Below, one piece after another: positions 6,405-22,632 of a DNA stretch of 32,000 bases. Source of the DNA: an archaeon (GTDB taxonomy: Archaea > Iainarchaeota > Iainarchaeia > Iainarchaeales > 1-14-0-10-31-34); contig JAJRVL010000002.1 of NCBI GenBank assembly GCA_024277355.1, positions 72,434 through 104,433 on the forward strand. The letters are read 5' to 3'. Made by a program: the position numbers and the translations under genes. A model generated the notes under the pieces. The model made no database searches. It saw nothing but the letters and a program-made list of their open reading frames with translations, and was not told the DNA's origin. How positions within the stretch are numbered: position 1 is the first letter of the stretch; each line of letters starts with the position of its first letter.

Positions 6405-7058
6405 TCACGGCAGGTAATATTTTAATACTGTTCCGTAACTTCTGTTCATAATTTTTGCTATTTCTGAAGGAGTTTTTCCTTGGTTTTTTAATTTTTGTAT
6501 TTGTTGTTTTTCTTTTTGGCTTAGAATTTTAATTTTTCCTCCTTTTTGTTTTCCTCCTTTTTTTTGCATTTCTCTTAATTCTTTTTTTGGTCTTATTTCA
6601 AGTAGTTTGTTAATGTAAAGTAGTGCGGTTGAACTTATTTTAATTCCTTTTTTTTTCATTTCTGTGGAAATTTGTCTGAGTGACTTATTTTTTTCACTGA
6701 AAATTTTGTTTGATGCAATAATTAATGTTATTGCATTAAGCGTGTTTCTTGAATTAATTTGCTGGTTTTTTATGTAGTGTTCCCATAATTTATTTCTTGT
6801 TTTTAATGGAATGTCTTTTCTTATCAAAACAAAGAATTTTTCTTTTTTCATTGGAGCTAATTTTTTTTGTAATAAATTGTGTTTTATTAAACTATTTCTG
6901 ACAGTTTGATTTGAAACAGTTATTTTAAATTTTGTTTCAATTTGGTTTTGTATTTCGGCAACTGAAAGAGGTTTATTTAAAATAAAGTTTTTGTTTACCT
7001 GCCTTTTAATAGAATTAATTATTTGCGGTGAAATTTTTGGAGTATTTTTTCTTTTCAT
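6405..7058 (-). CDS. Lys-rich multi-HTH DNA-binding protein, paralog family member 1
   Basis: 217 aa. C-terminal classic HTH LSQKEKQQIQKLKNQGKTPSEIAKIMNRSYGTVLKYY. N-terminal module PLSVAEIQNQIETKFKITVSNQTVRNSLIKHNLLQKK resembles the second HTH of Tc1/IS630 transposases. Shares the KFFxLIxKxIP...NKLW block with 7064..8011 and 9922..10572. Confidence 0.5.
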   Translation of the reverse strand: MKRKNTPKISPQIINSIKRQVNKNFILNKPLSVAEIQNQIETKFKITVSNQTVRNSLIKHNLLQKKLAPMKKEKFFVLIRKDIPLKTRNKLWEHYIKNQQINSRNTLNAITLIIASNKIFSEKNKSLRQISTEMKKKGIKISSTALLYINKLLEIRPKKELREMQKKGGKQKGGKIKILSQKEKQQIQKLKNQGKTPSEIAKIMNRSYGTVLKYYLP

Positions 7059-7063
7059 ATAAA

Positions 7064-8011
7064 TCAGAAATCTTTTGAAGTTGGAAACCTCATTTTATTC
7101 ATTTTATTGATTTTTTCAATTCTTAATTGTTTTTGTCTTTTGCTCCATAAATTATTTATTTTTTCCATTAAAATTTTTTCATTTTTAATTCCTGTTTTTT
7201 CTAATTGTGCTAACACGTCAGCAGGATAATAATCCATGTTAACTAATTCACTTATTTTTATGCTGATTTCTTTTGAAACGGTTTTTGGTTTAATTTTAAT
7301 TTTTGTTTTGTTTCCAAAATAAAATCTTTTTCGCATTGCTTTTTCTTCTTTAGAAAATATTTCTAATCTGGTTGAAATAACATTTATTCCTGATAAAGAA
7401 ATGCTTACTTTTTTTTCAGCTAATTTTTTTTGAATTTCAATAAAAGCAGTTGGTTTTTTTGTGTTTTTTTGTTTGAATAATTCTACTGCAATTTTAATGT
7501 AATTTTTTGCAGGTATTTTGTATTTTATTTTAACTGAATTTCTTGCATATAATTTCCAAAGCTTGTTTTGTTTGTCTGCTGAAAAATATTTTTTTATTTG
7601 GTTTGGAATTGATTTTGAAATTAAATCAAAAAACCTTTTTTTTGGCATTATTTTGTTTTTTTTTCTTGTTTGTCTGTAAACAGAAAGTTTTGTCTGTCTT
7701 TTTGGTTTTTTTGGAGTTGTTCCTTTGTTTTCCCAGTAATTTTTAATTGCTATTTTGATTTCTCCGTGATGTAATTTTATTCCTTCTTTTATAAGTTTGT
7801 TTTTAATTGCATTAGCACTTAATTGTTGTTCAGTCATTTCTCCAATTTTTTTCATAGTTGTTTCATTAATTCTTTTAACTTTTGGTTTTATTTTAACTTC
7901 AGCAACCATGATTTTTTTGGTTTGTTGTATGCTAAAACTTGAATTAACTCTTGTTCTTTTGCTTAAGTGATTTTGTTTTAGCATTTTTTTTATTGGAACA
8001 GGTTTTTTCAT
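7064..8011 (-). CDS. Lys-rich multi-HTH DNA-binding protein, paralog family member 2
   Basis: 315 aa with several HTH-like units (LSANAIKNKLIKEGIKLHHGEIKIAIKNY; FIEIQKKLAEKKVSISLSGINVISTRL; YPADVLAQLEKTGIKNEKILMEKI). RFFDLISKSIPNQ..NKLWKLY is shared with the paralogs. It lies 5 nt upstream of member 1, so the two are probably co-transcribed. Confidence 0.5.
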   Translation of the reverse strand: MKKPVPIKKMLKQNHLSKRTRVNSSFSIQQTKKIMVAEVKIKPKVKRINETTMKKIGEMTEQQLSANAIKNKLIKEGIKLHHGEIKIAIKNYWENKGTTPKKPKRQTKLSVYRQTRKKNKIMPKKRFFDLISKSIPNQIKKYFSADKQNKLWKLYARNSVKIKYKIPAKNYIKIAVELFKQKNTKKPTAFIEIQKKLAEKKVSISLSGINVISTRLEIFSKEEKAMRKRFYFGNKTKIKIKPKTVSKEISIKISELVNMDYYPADVLAQLEKTGIKNEKILMEKINNLWSKRQKQLRIEKINKMNKMRFPTSKDF

Positions 8012-8037
8012 TATTTAATTGTATTTTTCTTTCTTTT

Positions 8038-8055
8038 TAAATTTCACTGGCGTTT
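8038..8055. promoter_or_regulatory. conserved 18-mer TAAATTTCACTGGCGTTT in the divergent promoter (copy A, upstream of nurA)
   Basis: Exact match to 10598..10615. Lies 27 nt from the minus-gene ATG and 60 nt from the nurA ATG. After an 8-nt spacer come AAACCTTT (8064..8071) and a TATA-like TTTTTAAA ~25 nt upstream of the ATG. Confidence 0.6.
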
Positions 8056-8097
8056 ATCTTCATAAACCTTTTTAAATTAACAAAACTTTTATTTTAT

Positions 8098-9195
8098 ATG
8101 AATGTTAATTCTTTGATTAATGATGCAGTAACTAAAATTAAAGGCAATGAAGGAAAGAAAAAAAACATTGCAGGAAAATTAACTGCAGTAAAAAAAACAA
8201 ATTTAAGTGAATTTAATTCAAAAGAATTATTTGAAGAAAACTTTTTTTTTGAAATTTCTCCTGCTGAATTAAACAATAAAATTGCCGGAACTGATTCAGG
8301 GTTTGTTGGAAAAAGAATGCATTCAGTTGATATTGTTTTAATTAAAACAGTTTCAGCAGTTTTTTCTTATCAAAAAAACAAATTAACTAAAGCAGAATAT
8401 TTTCCTTCTCCTACTGCTTTTCCTAAACCTTTTATTTCTTCTAATACTCTGGAAAATGATGAATTTCAGTCTAATCAGTCTTTAATGAGGTTAAAAGAAG
8501 AAATTTCTAATTCAATAGAAGTAATAGAAAAATTTAAGCCTGATTATTGTTTTTTGGATGGAAGTATTATTCCGCAGTATGCTGAAACAAAAAAAGATTC
8601 ACAGTTGTATTCAAATTATTCTAATTTAATTAAATTATTTCAAGAATTATATGAAACTGCAGAGCAAAACAAATGTAATTTAATTGCTACTGTGGAAGAT
8701 TCAAGGGGTTCAAGATTCAGGAGTATTTTGCAGAAAGAAATCTTAGAAAAAAATAAGTTAATTGAGTCAGATGCATTAAATTCTTTTTTTGATTCAAGTT
8801 TACTTGATTATTTGCTTTCAAAAAATGAAAGAAGTTTTTGTTTTAATTACACGTCATCCATAAAAGAGCATCCGATTTTAAAGGATTTTAATGAAAAATG
8901 GGCTTCAAGAATAAAAACTTTTTATTTAAAGCCTTCAATGCTTGACAGGCCTTTAAGAATTGAATTTCTTCATAACGGAAAAAATTTAACTGAATACTGT
9001 AATGAAATTGCTTCTGTTGTTTTGTCTTTGTCTTCTTTGCATAAAGAATATGCTTATCCTTCTGTTTTAATTGAAGCAGATTTAAGGGCAAGATTAAAAC
9101 CAAATGAAGTGGAAATTTTGTTTAATAAAATTCAGGATAAATTAGGAAGAGAAAATGCTTTTTTGGCTTTAAGGAGAAATTCAAGGCCGTTTTGA
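8098..9195 (+). CDS. nurA: NurA 5'-3' nuclease
   Basis: 365 aa. NurA-like acidic motifs: IAGTDSGFVG, CFLDGSIIPQY, ATVEDSRGSRF and YPSVLIEADLRARL. Confidence 0.75.
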   Translation: MNVNSLINDAVTKIKGNEGKKKNIAGKLTAVKKTNLSEFNSKELFEENFFFEISPAELNNKIAGTDSGFVGKRMHSVDIVLIKTVSAVFSYQKNKLTKAEYFPSPTAFPKPFISSNTLENDEFQSNQSLMRLKEEISNSIEVIEKFKPDYCFLDGSIIPQYAETKKDSQLYSNYSNLIKLFQELYETAEQNKCNLIATVEDSRGSRFRSILQKEILEKNKLIESDALNSFFDSSLLDYLLSKNERSFCFNYTSSIKEHPILKDFNEKWASRIKTFYLKPSMLDRPLRIEFLHNGKNLTEYCNEIASVVLSLSSLHKEYAYPSVLIEADLRARLKPNEVEILFNKIQDKLGRENAFLALRRNSRPF

Positions 9196-9244
9196 TGAAA
9201 GGATTAATATTATTTTTCTTTCTTCTTTTTTTTAGTGAATTAAG

Positions 9245-9916
9245 ATGGAAAAATTAAAAGTTAAAGCAGTTTTTTTTGATTTATGGAATACTTTGGCTTT
9301 TACTGATTCAAAAAAAGATTTATTCAGAGAAATGCAGGTTCGTTTTGGTTTAAATGAAATAACTCATTCTCAGTTTTTGCAGGGATGTGAAAGAGCAATA
9401 ATGTTAGAGGAATTTGAAACTTTAGAGCATTTATATTCAAAGTTGCTGAATTATTTTTCTGTTCCTTCAGGAGAAATTATGTTAGGGGACTTGGATTTTT
9501 TATGGAATTATACTTTAAAGAAAAACAAGTTTTATCCTGAAACAAAAAAAGTTTTAACTAAAACAAAAAAACATTTTAAGACTGCTTTAATTTCTAATTG
9601 CGAGAATTTTGGAGTTAAAGGGTTGTCTAATGGATTTGATTTTAAGGATTATTTTGATGAAATAATTCTGTCTTGTGATGTAAATTTATTAAAACCTAAT
9701 TCAAAAATTTTTCAGGTTCCTTTAAAAAAACTTAAAGTTAAACCTGAACAGGCAGTAATGATTGGTGATTCAATTCGAACTGACATGAAAGGCGCAAAAA
9801 GATCAGGATTAAAAACAATTTTAATTGACAGAAAACAAAGATTTAAAGGAAAAAAATTAGAGGTTGATGCTGTTATTTCTTCTTTAAATGAATTAGAAAA
9901 AGTAATTGAATTTTAA
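9245..9916 (+). CDS. HAD-superfamily hydrolase
   Basis: Motif I VFFDLWNTL, motif II ALISNC, motif IV MIGDSIRTDMKGAKRSGLKTILI. Confidence 0.75.
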   Translation: MEKLKVKAVFFDLWNTLAFTDSKKDLFREMQVRFGLNEITHSQFLQGCERAIMLEEFETLEHLYSKLLNYFSVPSGEIMLGDLDFLWNYTLKKNKFYPETKKVLTKTKKHFKTALISNCENFGVKGLSNGFDFKDYFDEIILSCDVNLLKPNSKIFQVPLKKLKVKPEQAVMIGDSIRTDMKGAKRSGLKTILIDRKQRFKGKKLEVDAVISSLNELEKVIEF

Positions 9917-9921
9917 TGAAT

Positions 9922-10572
9922 TTAATAAGAAGAATCTCTGGTTTCTCTTATAATCCAATCAACTGCCTTAAATCCGGTTAATTGCTGTCTTTCTCTTTTG
10001 CTTCCTAATGAAAAAGTTTTTGCGTCATGTTTGAATTCTGCTGCAATTTTTTTCCATATGTCTCTTGTAGAAAGCTTGTTGTTTTTTGTTAATTCAATTA
10101 TTCTGTTTTCAATCAGGTTATTTCTTATTTTTGTTTTTCCTTTAGCTGAAGTTATTTTTGGAATAGTTGTTTTAGGAGTGCTTATTGTAATTGAATTAGT
10201 GTTATATTCTTTTGCTTTAACTAAACCTGTTTCGTTTGCAATTCTTCTTAATGAAGCATAACTCATTCCATCAATTTTTTTTGAAACAGCAACTAAATTA
10301 AGTTTTCCTTTTTTTGATTCAATCCATAAAACATTAACTGCATTAACAATGTTTTCCGGAGAAATAATTTTAGCGTTTTTAACTGAATTTTTTGAATTAC
10401 TTTTTATTAATTCAAATGTTTTTAATTTAATTCTCCTTGGAATTGTTTTATTAAATGATCTAAAAAATTTAGGCAGAACATTTCGCCCCAAAACAACTTT
10501 TCTCGGTTTAAGCATTTTTTGTGTTCTTGCATTTCTTCTTCTTACAGTTAAATGAGCTCGATTTTTATTCAT
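9922..10572 (-). CDS. Lys/Arg-rich multi-HTH DNA-binding protein, paralog family member 3
   Basis: 216 aa. PKFFRSFNKTIPRRIKLKTFELIKSN aligns with the KFFxLIxKxIP block of members 1 and 2. HTH-like units include LVAVSKKIDGMSYASLRRIANETGL and NRIIELTKNNKLSTRDIWKKIA. Confidence 0.45.
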   Translation of the reverse strand: MNKNRAHLTVRRRNARTQKMLKPRKVVLGRNVLPKFFRSFNKTIPRRIKLKTFELIKSNSKNSVKNAKIISPENIVNAVNVLWIESKKGKLNLVAVSKKIDGMSYASLRRIANETGLVKAKEYNTNSITISTPKTTIPKITSAKGKTKIRNNLIENRIIELTKNNKLSTRDIWKKIAAEFKHDAKTFSLGSKRERQQLTGFKAVDWIIRETRDSSY

Positions 10573-10597
10573 AATTTATTTTGTTTTTTAAAGTTTA

Positions 10598-10615
10598 TAA
10601 ATTTCACTGGCGTTT
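10598..10615. promoter_or_regulatory. conserved 18-mer TAAATTTCACTGGCGTTT in the divergent promoter (copy B, upstream of herA)
   Basis: Exact match to 8038..8055. Lies 26 nt from the minus-gene ATG and 61 nt from the herA ATG. After an 8-nt spacer come AAACCTTT (10624..10631) and a TATA-like TTTAAATA. Confidence 0.6.
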
Positions 10616-10658
10616 TACACTGAAAACCTTTAAATAACTTATAATCATTTTTTTGTTT

Positions 10659-12194
<1,536 letters not shown>

Positions 12195-12219
12195 TAATTA
12201 AAAAAAACACTAATTTTTT

Positions 12220-12801
12220 ATGCTAAGAAAACTTTGGAGAAAAACCCGAAAACCTTTTGTTAAAACTGTTCAGGGATTAAAAAAAGTTGAAGGTGGAAAA
12301 GAAAGAAGAAAAAAGTTAGCTGATTCTTTAAAACATGCAAGAAAAATAGATAAATGTATTAAAATTTCAAGATGGGGTCGTTTTGGAGAATCTTTTTTAG
12401 AACGTGATAAAAAAATTCTTCTTTCAAGAATTAATAATTTGCTTAATCGTGAAAAACAAGTTAAGGTAGTTAAAATTTTAGATTTAGGTTCTGGTTCAGG
12501 CGTTTATTGGGATAAACTTGTACAGGGAAACCCCAGACTTAAGAGGAAACTTAAAGTTGTTTGTATTAACCCTACAAGAACTCTTTTCAGAGAAACTGAA
12601 GTAAAAAGTCTTGTTTTAGGAAATCTTTTAACAATGAATAAAGCAAGATTTAAAAAATTTCTAAAAGAAAAAGGAAAATTTAATTTGGTTATTTCTTCTG
12701 CAGGCTCTTATCATTACAGTTTTGAAAAAGAATTATTTGATAGAAGAATAATGGATGTTTTAATTGAAAAAAAAGAATCTAATTTTTTGCTTTTAACTTA
12801 A
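12220..12801 (+). CDS. hypothetical protein with basic N-terminus and possible SAM-methyltransferase fold
   Basis: 193 aa. Only motif I-like KILDLGSGSGVYW is recognisable. Lies 25 nt downstream of herA on the same strand. Confidence 0.4.
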   Translation: MLRKLWRKTRKPFVKTVQGLKKVEGGKERRKKLADSLKHARKIDKCIKISRWGRFGESFLERDKKILLSRINNLLNREKQVKVVKILDLGSGSGVYWDKLVQGNPRLKRKLKVVCINPTRTLFRETEVKSLVLGNLLTMNKARFKKFLKEKGKFNLVISSAGSYHYSFEKELFDRRIMDVLIEKKESNFLLLT

Positions 12802-13053
12802 TCAAAAACCTAATTTTTTTAGTTTTGCACTTGGATCATCATTAATATATTCTTCTAATGCTTTTTCTAATTCATCTTCTTTTTCAAAACTTAATCCTTT
12901 TTTTGTTTTACCGCTTAATTCTTCAATTCTTAATCTTACTGCATCTCTTACTGCTTCAGTCCTTGAAGCATAAAAACCATTTTTAACTAATTTGTCAATT
13001 TTTTCAATGTCTTTTTTTGAAAAATTAATTAACACAGAAATTTTTGAATTCAT
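12802..13053 (-). CDS. ribbon-helix-helix (CopG/Arc/MetJ) DNA-binding protein
   Basis: Beta-strand plus two helices: KISVLINFSKKDIEKIDKLVKNGFYASRTEAVRDAVRLRIEEL. The track start at 13068 is TTG; ATG 13053 (MNSKISV) is preferred. Confidence 0.6.
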   Translation of the reverse strand: MNSKISVLINFSKKDIEKIDKLVKNGFYASRTEAVRDAVRLRIEELSGKTKKGLSFEKEDELEKALEEYINDDPSAKLKKLGF

Positions 13054-13132
13054 AATACTAAAACACAATTAAACTTAATAAATATATACTAAAATACATT
13101 ATTTATATATTATTTATATATTTGTTGCTTTC

Positions 13133-13142
13133 TTCACCGGCA
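13133..13142. promoter_or_regulatory. degenerate third copy of the nurA/herA upstream core (TTCACCGGCA vs TTCACTGGCG)
   Basis: 8/10 match. Lies 58 nt upstream of ATG 13191 (55-56 nt in copies A and B). TTTTTAAA follows 29 nt later (26 nt in A and B). It is a GC-rich island in AT-rich spacer. Confidence 0.3.
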
Positions 13143-13190
13143 GTCAGGAGTTGGGTTTTTGTTTTTAAAGAACTTAAATTTGTTTCTTGT

Positions 13191-14672
13191 ATGCCTTTAA
13201 CTTCCAATACCTTTTATTTATCCAATGCGGAATATGTTGAAAAAAAGAAAAGAGTTTCAGTTGAATTCTCTAACTTAAATGAAACAAGAAGAATTTCTTT
13301 TCCTTTTATTCCTTATATTATTCTTCATAAAAGTTTGCTGGACAAATCTTTTTTTGATTTCCTGAAAAAAAAGAAACTTAAAACCGAAAAAATAACTAAT
13401 GGCTTTAAAGTTTTTTCAAGTGATTTTTCTTTTTTAGAAAAAGTGAATTCTTTTTTTGAAAAAAAAGGGATTTTACTTCCTTCTGAAACACAGTTTTTGT
13501 TATTAAAGAACTGGAGTTTTTTTGATGGATTTGAATTAAATGAAAATAATGAATTTGAAAAAAAAGGTTTTATTGAATTCCCTGAATTAAAACCTGAGTT
13601 CAGCTATAATTCCTTAAAAGAAAATGTTTCTGAAATGCTTTCTTTTTCTGATACTTCCGGAAAAAACTTTTTAAATAAAATTATTCTTTCAAATGTTTTA
13701 TGTTTAAAGCTGAATTATCTTAATGTTTCTAAATCGTCAATGCTTGATTCTTTTATTGAATTAATTTTATTTAGAAATAATTTTGCTTTTAATAAATCAA
13801 AACCAAAATTTGATTCAGGTTTTATTAAAAAATATTCAGGGAAATTAAAGGAAATTGATTTTTCTTTTGTCTGGCCTGTTTTGTTTTCTTTTCCTTTTCA
13901 TAATTTAGGTTTTGATTCAGTTAATTGTTCCTGCTGTAAGCCGAAAGAATTTAATGAAAGAAATATTCTTCCTTCTTCTTTGATTGAAGTTAAATTCAAT
14001 GAAGATGCCATTTATTTTGAATCATCTAATACTGACTGGAGTTCTTTTTTCCATGAAAAGGCTTTAGGAAAAGAAAAAAGAATTAAAAGAATGAATGAAT
14101 GGCGTTTAAGAAACATTCCTTCAGGTCCTTTTTTCAGAAATGATGTTTTAAGAATTCCTTTAAATGATGCATTAAAACTAAAAGAAGAAGAAAAAATAGT
14201 TTTCTTAAATGATCATAATTTAGTTTGGAGCTGTACTAAAAAAGAATGTTTTATTTCAAAAGAATTAACTGAATTAAACAAAAAAACAGTTTTGTTTGAT
14301 AAAAAAATAAATGAATTGGAATCCGGTTCAATTAAAGATAATGGAATTGCTTTTTCTTTGTTTCTGGAAAAAAATCCTGAATTTCATTTTTTCTCTGAAT
14401 ATAAAAATGTATTAAAAACAATTTTTTCTTCTGTTCCTTTTCATTTATCTTCTCATTCTTCTGCATTTTTTGATTTTGTTCTTTCAAATTCAATTAAATC
14501 TGTTTTTTCTTCGGTTTTAACTAAATTCAGGGAATTTTCAGTGTCTAATTCAAGTCCTTCTTTTATTACAAAAAAAGGTGTGTTAGTTGATTCTGATAAT
14601 CCTCTTGATTTGCTTACTGAATTCTCTAAAAACCAGAATATTCCTGTTCCAGAGCTTTCTATAAAGAATTAA
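13191..14672 (+). CDS. hypothetical protein; candidate miniaturised, degenerate family-B DNA polymerase homolog
   Basis: Ordered resemblance to archaeal PolB as recalled for Pfu. N-terminus [27 protein letters not shown] vs ILDVDYITEEGKPVIRLF..FRPYIYAL. Motif A [29 protein letters not shown] vs [43 protein letters not shown] vs RWYCKECAESVT. Most of the exonuclease domain is absent, and motifs B and C are degenerate. Start moved to ATG 13191; the TTG-started extension covers promoter-like sequence. Confidence 0.4.
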   Translation: [493 protein letters not shown]

Positions 14673-15169: not shown

Positions 15170-16936
15170 TTAATTAATTGAATTTTCTTTTGGAATTGAA
15201 CTGCCTTCGTTTTCTTTGTCTCTTTCTATTTCATAATAACTTCCTGAAGCAGCTTTTTCCATTTCAGAATCATGAGTTATTATAAAAATCTGGTCAACTA
15301 AAGAAGGAAGATGTTCTTTCATCATTTTACTTAATTTTGCTGTTGCATTTTTATCTAAATTATGTGTTGGTTCATCTAAAATTAACCAGCTTAAATTCTG
15401 AGTTAATACAAGAGAAAAAGCAACTCTGATGCAGATTGCTGCAGCACTTCTTTCTCCTCCTGAAAGAATTCCTTCAACCCTGATCCATTTTCCATTTTTT
15501 TCTTTTACTTTTATTTCGTAATTTCCTTCTTCTATTTCCATTTTAGCTGAAGTAAAATCGCCGTAAGGATAAATTTTATTCCATACGTCATCCATTGCTT
15601 CATTTATTGTGTCAATCATTTCTTTTCTTAATTCTGCCTGAGTTGCATTTAAGGCATTGTTAAATAATGCTAATTCAGATAAAATTTTTTCATGTAATTC
15701 AGTTTCTTTTTTTAATTCATTAATTCTGTTTTCTTCTTTTTCTATTTTTTCAATGTTTAATTTAATGCTTTCAATTAATTCAGCAGTATTTTTGATTTCT
15801 TTTTCAGAGAATTCAACTGAAGATTTAACTGAATAAACAATTTCTTTTTTTTTGCTGAAAGCATTTTCTATATAGCCAAGTGTTTCTTTTTTTTCTGTTA
15901 ATTCTGATAACTCTTTTTTCCAGTTTTTGGATTTAAAAAATTCTTTTATTAATTCAATTTCCTGTTCAATTTTTTTTATTTCGTTTTCTTTTGTTTGTAT
16001 TTTTTCTTCGTTTACTTCTTTTTCCAGTTTTTCTTTTAATAAATTGCTTTCATTCAATTTTTCTTTTATTAATTCAATTTGTTTTTGTGTTTCTTTTATT
16101 TCATTTAATCTTTCTGTTAAACCTTTAATTTTGTTTTTTTCTTCTTCAAGTGAAAAAACTTTGTTTTCTAATATTGTTTTGGTTTTTTTTATTTCTTTGA
16201 TTTCCAGCATGGTTTTTCTTTCATCTTCTGTTAAACCTTTGTTTATTATTCCTATTTTTTCTTCTTCTTTTTCATAAGAGTTAATTAATTCAATTTTTTT
16301 TTCCTGACTTAATTTTGTTGAACAAACAGGACAGTCTGATTCTGATTTAGTTAATTTTTTTATGTTTTCTTCTAATTCAGCAACTCTTTTTTCGTTAACT
16401 AAAATTCCGTTTTTTGTTTCAAAAACTTCTTTTTCAAGTTCTTCAATTCTTTTTTCTTTTGCTTTTTTTTCTTCCTGTATTTCTTTTATTTTTTTTTCTG
16501 TTTCTTCTTGTTTTTCTTTTATTTTTTCTTCTGAGTTAATTCCTGAAAGAAGTTCGGTTTTTCGGTTTTTTTCTTTTTCAAGAAATTCTTTTTTTTCGTT
16601 TTCTGCTTTTATTCCTGCTTTAATTGCAGAAAGTTCTCTTAATTTTGTTTCTATTTCGTTTTTTTCTTTTTTTAATTCAATTAATTTATTTTCTTCGTTT
16701 TCTGGTTCTTTGTTTTCAATGTCTTTTCCTTTTATTTTTTTTTCTGTTTCTGATATTTTTGTTTCAAGTTTAATTTCTTTTTCTTTTATTTCTTTGAATT
16801 CTTTTTCTTTTTTTTCCAGTATTTCTAATTCAGTTGCGTGTTGTTTTAATTCGTTTTTTTCTTTCTCTATTTTTTCCTGTGTTTCTTTTAGTTGTTTTTC
16901 TTTTTCTTCTTTTTTTGGTTTAATTCTTTTAATGCT
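15170..16936 (-). CDS. rad50: Rad50 continuation in the -1 frame: coiled coil, CPVC zinc hook, ABC signature, Walker B, H-loop
   Basis: I checked triplet by triplet that this frame is open from 16936 to the track ORF 15170..16210. It has no Met upstream of 16210, so the track truncates it. Zinc hook SESDCPVCS has CPVC at 16322..16333. Also LSGGERSAAAICIRVAF, WLILDEPTHNLD and FIITHD. Confidence 0.85.
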   Translation of the reverse strand, partial: SIKRIKPKKEEKEKQLKETQEKIEKEKNELKQHATELEILEKKEKEFKEIKEKEIKLETKISETEKKIKGKDIENKEPENEENKLIELKKEKNEIETKLRELSAIKAGIKAENEKKEFLEKEKNRKTELLSGINSEEKIKEKQEETEKKIKEIQEEKKAKEKRIEELEKEVFETKNGILVNEKRVAELEENIKKLTKSESDCPVCSTKLSQEKKIELINSYEKEEEKIGIINKGLTEDERKTMLEIKEIKKTKTILENKVFSLEEEKNKIKGLTERLNEIKETQKQIELIKEKLNESNLLKEKLEKEVNEEKIQTKENEIKKIEQEIELIKEFFKSKNWKKELSELTEKKETLGYIENAFSKKKEIVYSVKSSVEFSEKEIKNTAELIESIKLNIEKIEKEENRINELKKETELHEKILSELALFNNALNATQAELRKEMIDTINEAMDDVWNKIYPYGDFTSAKMEIEEGNYEIKVKEKNGKWIRVEGILSGGERSAAAICIRVAFSLVLTQNLSWLILDEPTHNLDKNATAKLSKMMKEHLPSLVDQIFIITHDSEMEKAASGSYYEIERDKENEGSSIPKENSIN

Positions 16937-17547
16937 TTATCATCAAATGAATCAGAATGTTTTTTGATTAAGTCTTTTTTGTCTTCATTTATTTTTTTTA
17001 TTCTGTTTATTACTGAAATATTTGTTTTTCTTGCGTTTTCGTATTTGTCTAACTCTAAAATTTCATCAAACTTTTTTTTTCTTTGCATTGGACTTAATTT
17101 TAAAAAAAAGTCAATTTGGTTTTGTTCTGAATAAACAGCTCTTGAAAATAAATCGTAATTCATTTCAAGTATTTCTTCTATTTTTTCGTTTACGTCGTTT
17201 GGTTTTGGTCCTGCAATTAATTTTCCTTCTTCTAATATTTTTGCCTGATTAGAGTTTTTTCCTGCAAAAACTGTTCTTTTAATTAAATAATTTTTGTTGT
17301 TGTAGTCAAATTCTAATTCAACTTTTGATTCATCCATTTGATTAGGTTTATTCATTATTATTTCATTTAAGCTTACGGATTTAGAATTTAATGCAGGATA
17401 AGTGCCGAATAAAGCATAACACATGGCTTCAATTACTGTGCTTTTTCCTGCTCCAATTATTCCGGTTAATACATTAGTTCCTTTATTAAACTGAAATTCT
17501 GTTTCTTTATGGCTTTTCCAGTTAAACAATTTTACTTTTTTAATCAT
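16888..17547 (-). CDS. rad50: Rad50 N-terminal segment (Walker A lobe and start of coiled coil); the 0 frame stops 7 codons after an A7 run
   Basis: MIKKVKLFNWKSHKETEFQFNKGTNVLTGIIGAGKSTVIEAMCYALFG, plus the Q-loop region YSEQNQID. Ends ..LNQKKKKKKNN* at 16888. Confidence 0.85.
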   Translation of the reverse strand: MIKKVKLFNWKSHKETEFQFNKGTNVLTGIIGAGKSTVIEAMCYALFGTYPALNSKSVSLNEIIMNKPNQMDESKVELEFDYNNKNYLIKRTVFAGKNSNQAKILEEGKLIAGPKPNDVNEKIEEILEMNYDLFSRAVYSEQNQIDFFLKLSPMQRKKKFDEILELDKYENARKTNISVINRIKKINEDKKDLIKKHSDSFDDKALKELNQKKKKKKNN

Positions 17548-17611
17548 CTGTTTTATTTGTATTTAGAGCTTTTTAAAAAAATAACCAGCAGCAACAAATA
17601 ATTATGTAGAA

Positions 17612-18165: not shown

Positions 18166-18239
18166 GGGCTCGTGGCGCAACTGGATAGCGCAGTCCGCTT
18201 CGGACGGACAGGCTGGGGGTTCGACTCCCTCCGAGCTCA
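18166..18239 (+). tRNA. tRNA-Arg (anticodon TCG)
   Basis: 74-nt cloverleaf folded by hand. Acceptor GGGCTCG/CGAGCTC (one G-U). D arm GCGC-AACTGGATA-GCGC. Anticodon arm GTCCG-CTTCGGA-CGGAC. Variable loop AGGCT. T arm GGGGG-TTCGACT-CCCTC. Discriminator A, no encoded CCA, no intron. Confidence 0.9.
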
Positions 18240-21398: not shown

Positions 21399-21995
21399 TC
21401 ACTTTAATTCTTTTCTGCAGATTTTTTCAAATTTCTTTAATTGAAGATAATTTTTTTCAAGTTTTTTGTTTGCTTTTTCAAGAGCTTTTTTCAAGTATTC
21501 TTCGTTTAACAAAACTTTTTCCTTTATTTTAATTGGAAAAGAAATAACTTGTGTTCCAATTAATTCAACAATAAATTTTCCTTCTTCAACTGTCATTATT
21601 CCTGCTCTTCTTATTCCTGTTTTTCTTGTTGTTTTAAGTATTTTTTCTGCGTTTTCCAGGGTGTTTGTTCCTAAATGCAGAATAAATGGATCTAATTTAA
21701 ACCATAATTCTTCTTCTTGGTGTTTTTTGTTAATTCCTTCTGTTAATTCTTTTAATTTAACTTTTCTGTGCCATTTTGAATGAAATGCGGCTTCTCTTTT
21801 GTTTCCTTCTTTTCCAACATCAAGAAGAAGTATTCTTCCTGCGCAACTGCTTGAAGTAAAAAAGTTTTTTGTTGATGAAATATACCTGCATAATGGAATC
21901 ATTTGTTTATCTGCTTTTTTTTCTTTTACTGCTTTAAAAAAAGTTTTTTTATGTCTTTCTTTTATCATTTTAAATCTTGTTTCTGCTTTGTTCAT
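21399..21995 (-). CDS. taw3: tRNA wyosine-derivative methyltransferase Taw3 (TYW3 homolog)
   Basis: 198 aa. FFTSSSCAGRILLL, FHSKWHRKV and FILHLGTNTLENAEKIL fit the TYW3/DUF207 pattern. The start overlaps the upstream stop (ATGA). Confidence 0.75.
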   Translation of the reverse strand: MNKAETRFKMIKERHKKTFFKAVKEKKADKQMIPLCRYISSTKNFFTSSSCAGRILLLDVGKEGNKREAAFHSKWHRKVKLKELTEGINKKHQEEELWFKLDPFILHLGTNTLENAEKILKTTRKTGIRRAGIMTVEEGKFIVELIGTQVISFPIKIKEKVLLNEEYLKKALEKANKKLEKNYLQLKKFEKICRKELK

Positions 21996-22411
21996 AATTC
22001 AATCCTTTCTACTTTTTTTTCTTTTGTGTCAATTAAAACTATTTTTTCTTCTTTAACTGAAGAAACATTAATGCAAAAAGTTTTTTCAATGATTTCTTTT
22101 CCAAAAGCTTCATGGCAGTGTCCTGAAACACTGAATTCAGGGGAAAACTCTTCAATTATTTTTCTCACGGATTCTGAACCAATATGTTTTCCTGAAAAAC
22201 TTTTATCTAATGAACAATTTTTTGGAGGAGAATGAGTTACAAGAAAAACTTTTTTTTCTCCTTGGATTAAAAACTTTAGTTTTTCATATATTTCTTGTTC
22301 TGAAAAAATCATTTCTCCAATGCTTTCAACTGCTCCGCCAAAACCAATAAACATATAATCTTTAAATTTTTCTTTTCTTGAATGCAGTGAAATCCCTTTT
22401 TTTCCATAAAT
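21992..22411 (-). CDS. metallophosphoesterase, C-terminal part (-1 frame)
   Basis: The frame is open from 22411 and reads ..KKGISLHSRKEKFKDYMFIGFGGA...LVTHSPP...GHCHEAFG. These are calcineurin-like motifs IV-V, continuing the N-terminal part. Confidence 0.7.
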   Translation of the reverse strand: MYGKKGISLHSRKEKFKDYMFIGFGGAVESIGEMIFSEQEIYEKLKFLIQGEKKVFLVTHSPPKNCSLDKSFSGKHIGSESVRKIIEEFSPEFSVSGHCHEAFGKEIIEKTFCINVSSVKEEKIVLIDTKEKKVERIEL

Positions 22412-22632
22412 TCAAGGCCTTCTTTTGTATCAAGGTTTCCTGGAATTGCAAAAATTTTTTTATTTAATTTTTTTATTTCGTCTATTACTTCTTTTATTTG
22501 TGTTTCTCCGCCAAAATTAGTTAAATCTCCTGCAATTACCACTAAATCAATTTCACTGCTTTTTTTGTTTTCAAGAAGTTTTTTTAATGATTCAATTCTT
22601 GAATGCACATCACTTAAAACCAGTATTTTCAT
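22309..22632 (-). CDS. metallophosphoesterase, N-terminal part (0 frame)
   Basis: MKILVLSDVHS (motif I), VIAGDLTNFG (motif II), AIPGNLD (motif III). After ..FMEKK the 0 frame becomes non-homologous (GFHCIQEKKNLKIICLL..). Confidence 0.7.
   Translation of the reverse strand: MKILVLSDVHSRIESLKKLLENKKSSEIDLVVIAGDLTNFGGETQIKEVIDEIKKLNKKIFAIPGNLDTKEGLEFMEKKGFHCIQEKKNLKIICLLVLAEQLKALEK

Follow-up and report, generated by a model that had tools for sequence, protein, structure and literature searches.

The window analysed here is a 32-kb stretch of an Iainarchaeota (Diapherotrites, DPANN) genome with a G+C content of 27%. It encodes a set of archaeal markers (PTH2, RpoK, S17e, aEF-1beta, CCA enzyme, eRF1/Pelota-like, and RLI proteins), and the closest relatives of its HerA carry the annotation of Diapherotrites/Iainarchaeota (DPANN) metagenome-assembled genomes. 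Within the window, the plus-strand genes nurA and herA each stand head-to-head with a minus-strand gene for a basic protein, HTH315 in the case of nurA and HTH216 in the case of herA. A first-pass annotation of this DNA had drawn attention to the two divergent spacers (8012-8097 and 10573-10658), and its measurements were reproduced in our analysis: both spacers are 86 bp long, and both contain the same 18-mer, TAAATTTCACTGGCGTTT, letter for letter, with 27/26 nt between it and the minus-strand ATG and 60/61 nt on the plus-strand side, followed after an 8-nt gap by AAACCTTT and a TATA-like box (8064-8079 and 10624-10637). The names that it gave to nurA and herA are also correct, judging from their Pfam matches (Table 1). 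We propose that the central 11 nt of the 18-mer, TTTCACTGGCG (consensus TTTCACYGGCR), is an ancient upstream promoter element of fixed orientation and position, shared by nurA, herA, and a third gene of the same neighbourhood, orf493.

The 18-mer itself is found twice in the window and nowhere else in it, even when up to 3 mismatches are allowed, against an expectation of 0.05 matches; none of 100 shuffles of the window reached two or more matches (0/100). Exact matches in 185,579 species genomes, among which the source genome is not included, amount to 15 single and unrelated occurrences (unrelated bacteria and one Nitrosopumilus genome), which is about the level of chance. The same holds for viral contigs, with two single unrelated matches in coding-like DNA, and a literature search with the motif strings returned only unrelated primer sequences. 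We also considered AAACCTTT followed by TAAAT as a special shared box and rejected it, as it is of the TFB recognition element (BRE) and TATA box type that is ordinary in this genome and shows no enrichment (18 found vs 28 expected). An Rfam scan of both spacers matched no RNA family; the sole Rfam match in the window is a tRNA gene at 18166-18239 (+).

Conservation was assessed in two sets of herA loci, with ~20-30 kb of DNA examined per genome. The close set (L016-L020 and L031-L033) forms an AT-rich clade whose HerA proteins are 74-83% identical to that of the window, and the distant set (L021, L024-L027, L030, L034, and L035) has HerA proteins ~60% identical and a G+C content of 43-59%. 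Common to the close relatives is the gene order panD, nurA, (toxin-antitoxin pair), haloacid dehalogenase (HAD) hydrolase, herA, a minus-strand ribbon-helix-helix (RHH) gene, plus-strand orf493, rpoK, S17e, and minus-strand rad50, with short spacers; panD adjoins nurA in most of them and the HAD gene adjoins herA in all. The conservation in relatives that the first-pass annotation had proposed to look for is present, in that the GC-rich core is kept at the same place in the orthologous spacers, about 16-20 nt upstream of the TATA box, while the flanks have diverged. Alignments of these spacers contain two conserved islands, the element and the BRE/TATA region, within diverged surroundings. Per-position information is high only at TTTCACYGGCR, and the 5' TAAAT and 3' TTT of the 18-mer are unconstrained across the clade. 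The element precedes nurA and orf493 in all close relatives and herA in all but L032, the most distant member of the set (HerA 74% identical), in which no element lies before herA. Cores at the herA promoters read TTTCACCGGCA in L016 and L020, TCACCGGCA in L018, and TTTCACTGGCA in L031 and L033, and at nurA the promoters of relatives have versions of TTCACYGGCR with one or two mismatches, at an unchanged position. The copy preceding orf493, which had been missed in the first pass, is present in every close genome.

The pattern TTCACYGGCR had been derived by the first-pass annotation from the window alone, and a scan with it, as suggested there, gave 10 matches in 158,747 bp of seven genomes, where 0.30 would be expected from base composition. 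These matches comprise the three window promoters and seven herA or orf493 promoters of four relatives, all of them on the plus strand and 55-64 nt (in one case 119 nt) before the ATG of nurA, herA, or orf493. A looser pattern, TCAC[CT][GT]GC[AG], likewise matches those promoters only. Moreover, a position weight matrix (PWM) built from the relatives alone ranks the three window promoters first to third among ~64,000 positions on both strands, with scores of 18.4, 16.2, and 16.2 bits, the next position (14.0 bits) lying inside a gene. Across seven close and seven distant genomes, position and orientation are fixed, with all copies on the coding strand of the downstream gene, 16-20 nt before the TATA box and 53-64 nt before the ATG. 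The promoters of rad50 (window 17548-17610; L016-L020, L031, and L033) are without the element. These rad50 promoters share another block, TACATAACTAATT, of the form (C)TACATAA(C/T)TA(A/T)TT, ~45 nt before the ATG.

The anatomy of the three promoters is uniform. The element sits 9-11 bp upstream of a BRE-like (G)AAAAC and ~25-29 bp upstream of the TATA centre, which places its own centre at about -51 to -54 from the ATG. No Shine-Dalgarno sequence precedes nurA, herA, or orf493; other genes of the window have GGTGA or GGAGG. Together with TATA centres located 24.5-26.5 nt before the ATG, this suggests that the three genes are transcribed as leaderless mRNAs and, because they look leaderless, that the ATG is probably the start of transcription. 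At nurA, herA, and orf493 the element does not overlap the BRE or the TATA box, whereas at the inserted minus-strand genes it overlaps the presumptive BRE and abuts the TATA box. Specifically, the TATA boxes of both minus-strand genes overlap the 5' end of the 18-mer (TAAATTT), and the BRE position of their promoters coincides with the TTTCAC part of the element. The earlier placement of the 18-mer between two TATA boxes thus needs to be amended, since its 5' TAAATTT itself belongs to the minus-strand TATA box. On this anatomy, the 18-mer is best described as a composite of a putative ancient regulon element and the TATA box that belongs to a minus-strand gene inserted in this lineage. Dyad symmetry is not a property of the element: read on the sequence, TTTCACYGGCR lacks self-complementarity, which is confined to a CCGG centre in some of the copies.

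Table 1. Genes, element copies, and promoter features of the window (positions count from its first nucleotide).
Feature	Position	Strand	Remarks
18-mer copy 1, TAAATTTCACTGGCGTTT	8038..8055	+	HTH315/nurA divergent spacer
18-mer copy 2, TAAATTTCACTGGCGTTT	10598..10615	+	HTH216/herA divergent spacer
Conserved core TTTCACTGGCG, nurA promoter	8042..8052	+	consensus TTTCACYGGCR; centre ~-51 from ATG
Conserved core TTTCACTGGCG, herA promoter	10602..10612	+	centre ~-52 from ATG
Third element copy TTCACCGGCA	13133..13142	+	upstream of orf493; top PWM score in window
nurA BRE-like AAACC and TATA box TTTTAAAT (8070-8077)	8064..8079	+	TATA centre 24.5 nt before ATG
herA BRE-like GAAAAC and TATA box TTTAAATA (10629-10636)	10622..10637	+	TATA centre 26.5 nt before ATG
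orf493 TATA box TTTTTAAAG	13162..13170	+	TTTTAAAG at 13163-13170; ~24.5 nt before ATG 13191
TATA box TTTAAAAA of 315-aa gene	8034..8041	-	centre 26.5 nt before ATG; read from sequence
TATA box TTTATAAA of 216-aa gene	10594..10601	-	centre 25.5 nt before ATG; read from sequence
nurA (365 aa)	8098..9195	+	PF09376, E 2e-11
herA (511 aa)	10659..12194	+	PF01935, E 8e-31
orf493, third element-bearing gene	13191..14672	+	predicted family B DNA polymerase (PolB) fold; true ATG at 13191
HTH315, lineage-specific basic protein (315 aa)	7064..8011	-	inserted head-to-head with nurA
HTH216, lineage-specific basic protein (216 aa)	9922..10572	-	inserted between HAD gene and herA
217-aa protein with HTH_38 domain	6405..7058	-	weak paralogue of HTH315
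RHH_8 (CdrS-like) regulator gene	12802..13068	-	divergent from orf493

The element extends beyond the AT-rich clade. In the distant, GC-rich relatives, CA[CG][CT]GG[CA]A is found in 9 of 10 nurA or orf493-like promoters, in the same orientation and 45-63 nt before the ATG (e.g. GGCACCGGAAATCC, GCACCGGCA, and GGCAGTGGAAAC). Given a background of 2.2e-4 per position, the binomial P is ~1e-18, for a pattern that was picked post hoc, after the data had been seen. In L021 the genes nurA and herA overlap, and in L034 and L035 they lie in one tight same-strand string, with a single element before nurA. This arrangement, together with the missing element at herA of L032, suggests that the module belonging to herA (element, GAAAAC, and TTTAAATA) is derived and arose within the AT-rich clade. 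Two tandem copies of the element per promoter occur in some distant relatives (L034 12692-12740, L035 7257-7280, and L024 4934-4975), for instance GCACCGGAAAC and GCATCGGAAAT at a distance of 28 nt, or GGCAGTGGAAAC followed by ACAGCGGAAAAG; such tandem copies offer a hint of cooperative binding.

We consider it likely, with a probability of roughly 70%, that nurA, herA, and orf493 are co-regulated by one putative factor through an ancient, oriented element of the upstream activator site (UAS) type, which the inserted genes abut. In the most likely mechanism, a single sequence-specific transcription factor would bind the element and co-regulate the three promoters. Deeper relatives would have one element serving the nurA...herA operon, herA would have gained a separate, complete copy of the UAS-BRE-TATA module in the AT-rich clade, and fast-evolving basic genes of helix-turn-helix (HTH) type would have been inserted head-to-head against the nurA and herA promoters in the genome of the window only. 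A factor seated on the element would lie upstream of the BRE for nurA and herA, and on the BRE for the inserted genes. The position just upstream of the BRE suggests that the factor helps to recruit TATA-binding protein (TBP) and transcription factor B (TFB), as at an activator-type UAS; by analogy, it is the usual place of archaeal activators and not that of a repressor occluding TBP/TFB or RNA polymerase. Since the inserted genes have their TATA box next to the element and their BRE overlapping with it, binding of this factor would be expected to affect them as well. The word operator, used for the 18-mer in the first-pass annotation, is apt in so far as the element looks like a shared cis-regulatory site, but a spot ~10 bp upstream of the BRE suits an activator better than a classical operator. 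The accompanying proposal, that a shared site keeps nurA and herA coupled after the operon was broken, is supported, and it now takes in orf493 as a third gene and a clade at the level of the phylum. Co-regulation of nurA and herA is likewise supported, and the three genes probably share a regulator other than the neighbouring HTH proteins.

One candidate for the putative factor, by its conserved neighbourhood in close relatives, is the RHH_8 (CdrS-like) gene. We rejected it as an obligatory binder: it stands beside orf493 in close relatives and is not there in distant relatives that keep the motif. The promoter of the RHH_8 gene carries a different, AT-rich palindrome. A near-palindrome, TATATATTATTTATATA, AT-rich and conserved in the clade, is located at ~13100-13121, just upstream of TTCACCGGCA, and at the same place in L016-L020 and L031-L033; it may serve the RHH gene itself as promoter or operator.

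Several observations weigh against the proposal of a single ancient element. Transcription starts are placed by promoter geometry only, the specificity is that of just ~20-30 kb per genome, and the versions at the nurA promoters of relatives are more degenerate (TCACCGGAA, TTCACCTGCA, TTCAGGGGAA, TTTATTGGCG, and TTCACAGGCA). In addition, constraint across the clade explains only 10-11 of the 18 identical positions, the remainder being in excess, and the nurA site of the window is nearer to its own herA site (19/22 positions) than to the nurA site of any relative (7-13/22). Within those 22 positions, the two window sites have a run of 18 in common, while in five relatives the two sites agree at 10-16/22, with runs of 5-9. 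This excess identity implies a lineage-specific process superimposed on the ancient element. One promoter may have received a short patch from the other, by copying or gene conversion; duplication together with the inserted genes is another candidate, and the minus-strand promoters, or the inserted proteins themselves, could also have imposed additional constraint.

The third target, orf493, belongs to a family that is limited to Diapherotrites-type archaea and always adjoins herA. Searches of its sequence against Pfam, NCBIfam, and the sequences of the PDB gave no match. An AlphaFold2 (AF2) model based on a 16-sequence alignment is confident, with a predicted local distance difference test score (pLDDT) of 86 and a predicted TM-score (pTM) of 0.85, and a Foldseek search groups it with the family B DNA polymerases of archaea (E ~1e-7, probability 1.0, query-normalised TM ~0.49). 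The protein contains polymerase-like stretches, DFSFVWP (motif A) and VDSD (motif C). The acidic residues of both motifs are not conserved in the family (N or S; K-G-F), and a CxCC...HxxxWxC set is invariant in it. On the strength of the model, the best reading of orf493 is that of a PolB-like protein that has been inactivated and has a cluster for metal binding. We also considered Mre11 and rejected it, as there are no phosphoesterase motifs or matches and the fold is PolB-like. With a PolB fold for orf493, the three element-bearing genes would share a theme of DNA transactions.

A different reading of the same sites, which we regard as unlikely, is that they are akin to origin recognition boxes (ORBs) and are read by a regulator of the Orc1/Cdc6 family, nurA, herA, and orf493 then forming a regulon of DNA damage or replication stress. 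The mini-ORB of Pyrococcus, TTCCAGTGGAACT, is a 13-bp unit with conserved TTCC and GAA core motifs (PMC1904270), and the variants GGCAGTGGAAAC, GCACCGGAAAC, and GGCACCGGAAATCC of relatives share CAGTGGAA or CACTGG with it. The window copies match its reverse complement at 9/13 positions, as counted on the sequence, and the element is asymmetric and oriented, like ORB. Moreover, Orc1-2 is a proven regulator of DNA damage response (DDR) genes through a short promoter motif (PMC6061795). However, the TTCC described as perfectly conserved is replaced by TTTC, (G)GC, or TC, and GAA occurs in a subset only (e.g. at nurA in L016 and L033, and in L021, L027, L034, and L035), most copies of the AT-rich clade ending in GGCA or GGCG. 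Nor is the Sulfolobus ANTTTC conserved: although AATTTC occurs in the window copies, only 6/20 aligned sites have the required A. Neither the open reading frames (ORFs) of the window nor the loci of relatives include an orc1/cdc6 gene, and resemblance between short motifs is weak evidence. Still a little less probable, in our estimation, is the fuller version of this idea, in which TTTCACYGGCR / GCA(C/G)(C/T)GGAAA(C/T) would be ORB-derived and an Orc1/Cdc6-type (or other) regulator would control a phylum-wide damage or stress regulon of Iainarchaeota that couples end resection by HerA-NurA to an inactivated PolB-like protein. If true, no earlier regulon of DPANN archaea would have been defined by a cis-regulatory element, and origin-recognition machinery would have been put to use in the control of repair genes a second, independent time.

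The first-pass annotation had regarded the flanking genes, which it termed multi-HTH paralogs, as candidate and possibly autoregulatory binders of the 18-mer. That label stands for the 217-aa protein, which passes HTH_38 (35.9 bits, cut-off 27), but not for the 315-aa and 216-aa proteins, which match no family. The three proteins have the signature [KR]xF[FY]xxxx[KR]xIP in common. Similarity between the 217-aa and 315-aa proteins reaches E 7e-6, and that between the 315-aa and 216-aa proteins only E 0.02; for the 216-aa protein, AF2 modelling from the single sequence gave nothing usable (pLDDT 44). The 315-aa and 216-aa proteins are near-orphans in databases of 5.8 and 1.84 billion proteins: the 216-aa protein has no homologue except itself, and the 315-aa protein has two marginal matches among 1.84 billion representatives, one of them a multi-HTH repeat protein. 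By tblastn, neither gene was found in the loci of any of the seven close relatives, and the 217-aa protein has one relative (31%), at a different place in L033. Alone among close relatives, L033 has a gene of the HTH family beside nurA, encoding 286 aa with the FFxxxxKxIP signature and standing head-to-head with nurA; its nurA spacer is visibly homologous to window 8012-8045, and together these observations suggest that the nurA-side insertion predates the lineage of the window.

That these neighbouring proteins (those of 315 and 216 aa and perhaps the one of 217 aa) recognise the 18-mer, autoregulate, and control nurA and herA appears improbable to us on this evidence. Their genes are adjacent and divergent, with a TATA box and BRE that overlap the 18-mer, the extended 18-nt identity is restricted to the one genome in which both promoters have an HTH gene beside them, and the family member of L033 occupies the same head-to-head spot at nurA. 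Against this, the core is kept at nurA, herA, and orf493 in relatives without such genes, and the third copy at orf493 has no such neighbour. A verified HTH domain is found in the 217-aa protein only, the near absence of homologues applies to both proteins that flank the 18-mer, and two proteins so barely related (E 0.02) are unlikely to have an identical 18-bp specificity. As cognate binders the flanking paralogs are thus not upheld, HTH315 and HTH216 being absent from AT-rich relatives that keep the motif, and on this distribution the inserted genes, as we read it, cannot be the ancestral binders.

By far the least probable reading is that the 18-mer is functionless, whether as the end of a mobile element or miniature inverted-repeat transposable element (MITE), an insertion scar associated with the HTH genes, or a short gene-conversion tract: although the HTH genes are insertions relative to other genomes, the nurA/herA run of 18 is anomalously high when set beside the runs of 5-9 in relatives, and the 217-aa protein is weakly similar to transposase HTH domains, the window has two copies and no inverted copy within 3 mismatches, the inserted genes are flanked by no terminal inverted repeats (AT-rich low-identity pairs only), and the collections of genomes and viral contigs gave only single matches, unrelated to one another and at chance level. 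Gene conversion may account for the surplus identity, but it leaves the conserved core unexplained, and the presence of the core at orthologous sites without insertions indicates that it predates them; this conservation in itself already goes most of the way to refuting the reading.

The syntenic block has further features of its own. Its spacers are hot spots of variable cargo, as seen in the close relatives in comparison with window 9196-9244 and 12195-12801. Between nurA and the HAD gene, relatives have PemK- or PIN-type toxin-antitoxin pairs, with none at that position in the window; a 325-aa gene occurs in L017 only, and small methyltransferase-like ORFs follow herA. In several relatives, HerA is interrupted directly behind the Walker A region by an insertion the size of an intein (P0012/L033 10001-12547; L024 1038-4403; L025 5559-8993), resulting in proteins of 848 to ~1140 aa with PF14528 and Hint-type domains, and the HerA of the window is without the insertion. 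In the window, rad50 (15170-17547, -) is broken over two frames, with residues 1-211 in frame -3 (17547-16915) and residues 263-794 in frame -2 (16762-15173). A gene for a 213-aa metallophosphoesterase (21992-22632, -) is likewise broken (22632-22345 / 22402-21995). Both genes are unbroken in relatives, and the splits are either assembly frameshifts or pseudogenes.

Outside Sulfolobales, little is understood of how archaea regulate the repair of double-strand breaks, and our literature search found no report of a cis-regulatory element in DPANN archaea. A UAS-type element shared by nurA, herA, and orf493 would be a new regulon motif, of moderate interest as a first concrete handle on the regulation of repair genes in DPANN archaea. 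The 11-nt element could serve as bait for DNA-affinity capture of the regulator. By linking nurA and herA to a PolB-fold protein, it also predicts that the latter works with the end-resection machinery. More generally, the locus may offer one case of a promoter module duplicated at the split of an operon, and another of orphan genes that, once inserted, plug their own TATA box and BRE into an existing site to make bidirectional promoters.

Among known systems, the bacterial SOS box of the LexA regulon is an operator with palindromic sequence, at which a repressor binds in overlap with the core promoter. The likeness lies in one cis motif uniting dispersed repair genes into a regulon; the element described here differs in being asymmetric and upstream of the core promoter of the plus-strand genes. 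The Ptr2 UAS of Methanocaldococcus jannaschii is an archaeal upstream activator site, and our element resembles such sites in its location at about -50 and just upstream of the BRE/TATA region, in its fixed orientation, and in being shared by several promoters.

CdrS sites in Haloferax are found at about -50 from the transcription start (that of ftsZ1) and have a symmetric motif (PMC8406309). Here the likeness is that one copy of the element has an RHH_8 (CdrS-like) gene as its conserved neighbour, and the differences are that our element is asymmetric and known from sequence alone, and that in distant relatives the RHH gene is not beside it. With ORB and mini-ORB the element has in common its asymmetry and a core of CA(G/C)(T/C)GG, many copies having T-rich and GAAA arms. 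ORBs cluster around an AT-rich unwinding element beside orc1/cdc6, whereas here single copies lie in promoters, three of them in the window ~2.5 kb apart.

The DDR element of Sulfolobales, 5'-ANTTTC-3', is bound by Orc1-2 and lies at -23 to -55 from the ATG of DDR genes (PMC6061795). It differs from TTTCACYGGCR in sequence (AATAGTTTCRGWDTACTCWS/ANTTTC), in phylum (Thermoproteota, against DPANN here), and in its targets, which are ups, ced, and tfb3 rather than nurA, herA, and a PolB-like gene, and our element has so far been defined by its sequence. The two are nevertheless alike in being short, asymmetric, and promoter-proximal, in standing tens of bp before the ATG of several separately transcribed genes of DNA damage or DNA transactions, and in that a single trans factor, which acts on the DDR element, would by inference also act here.

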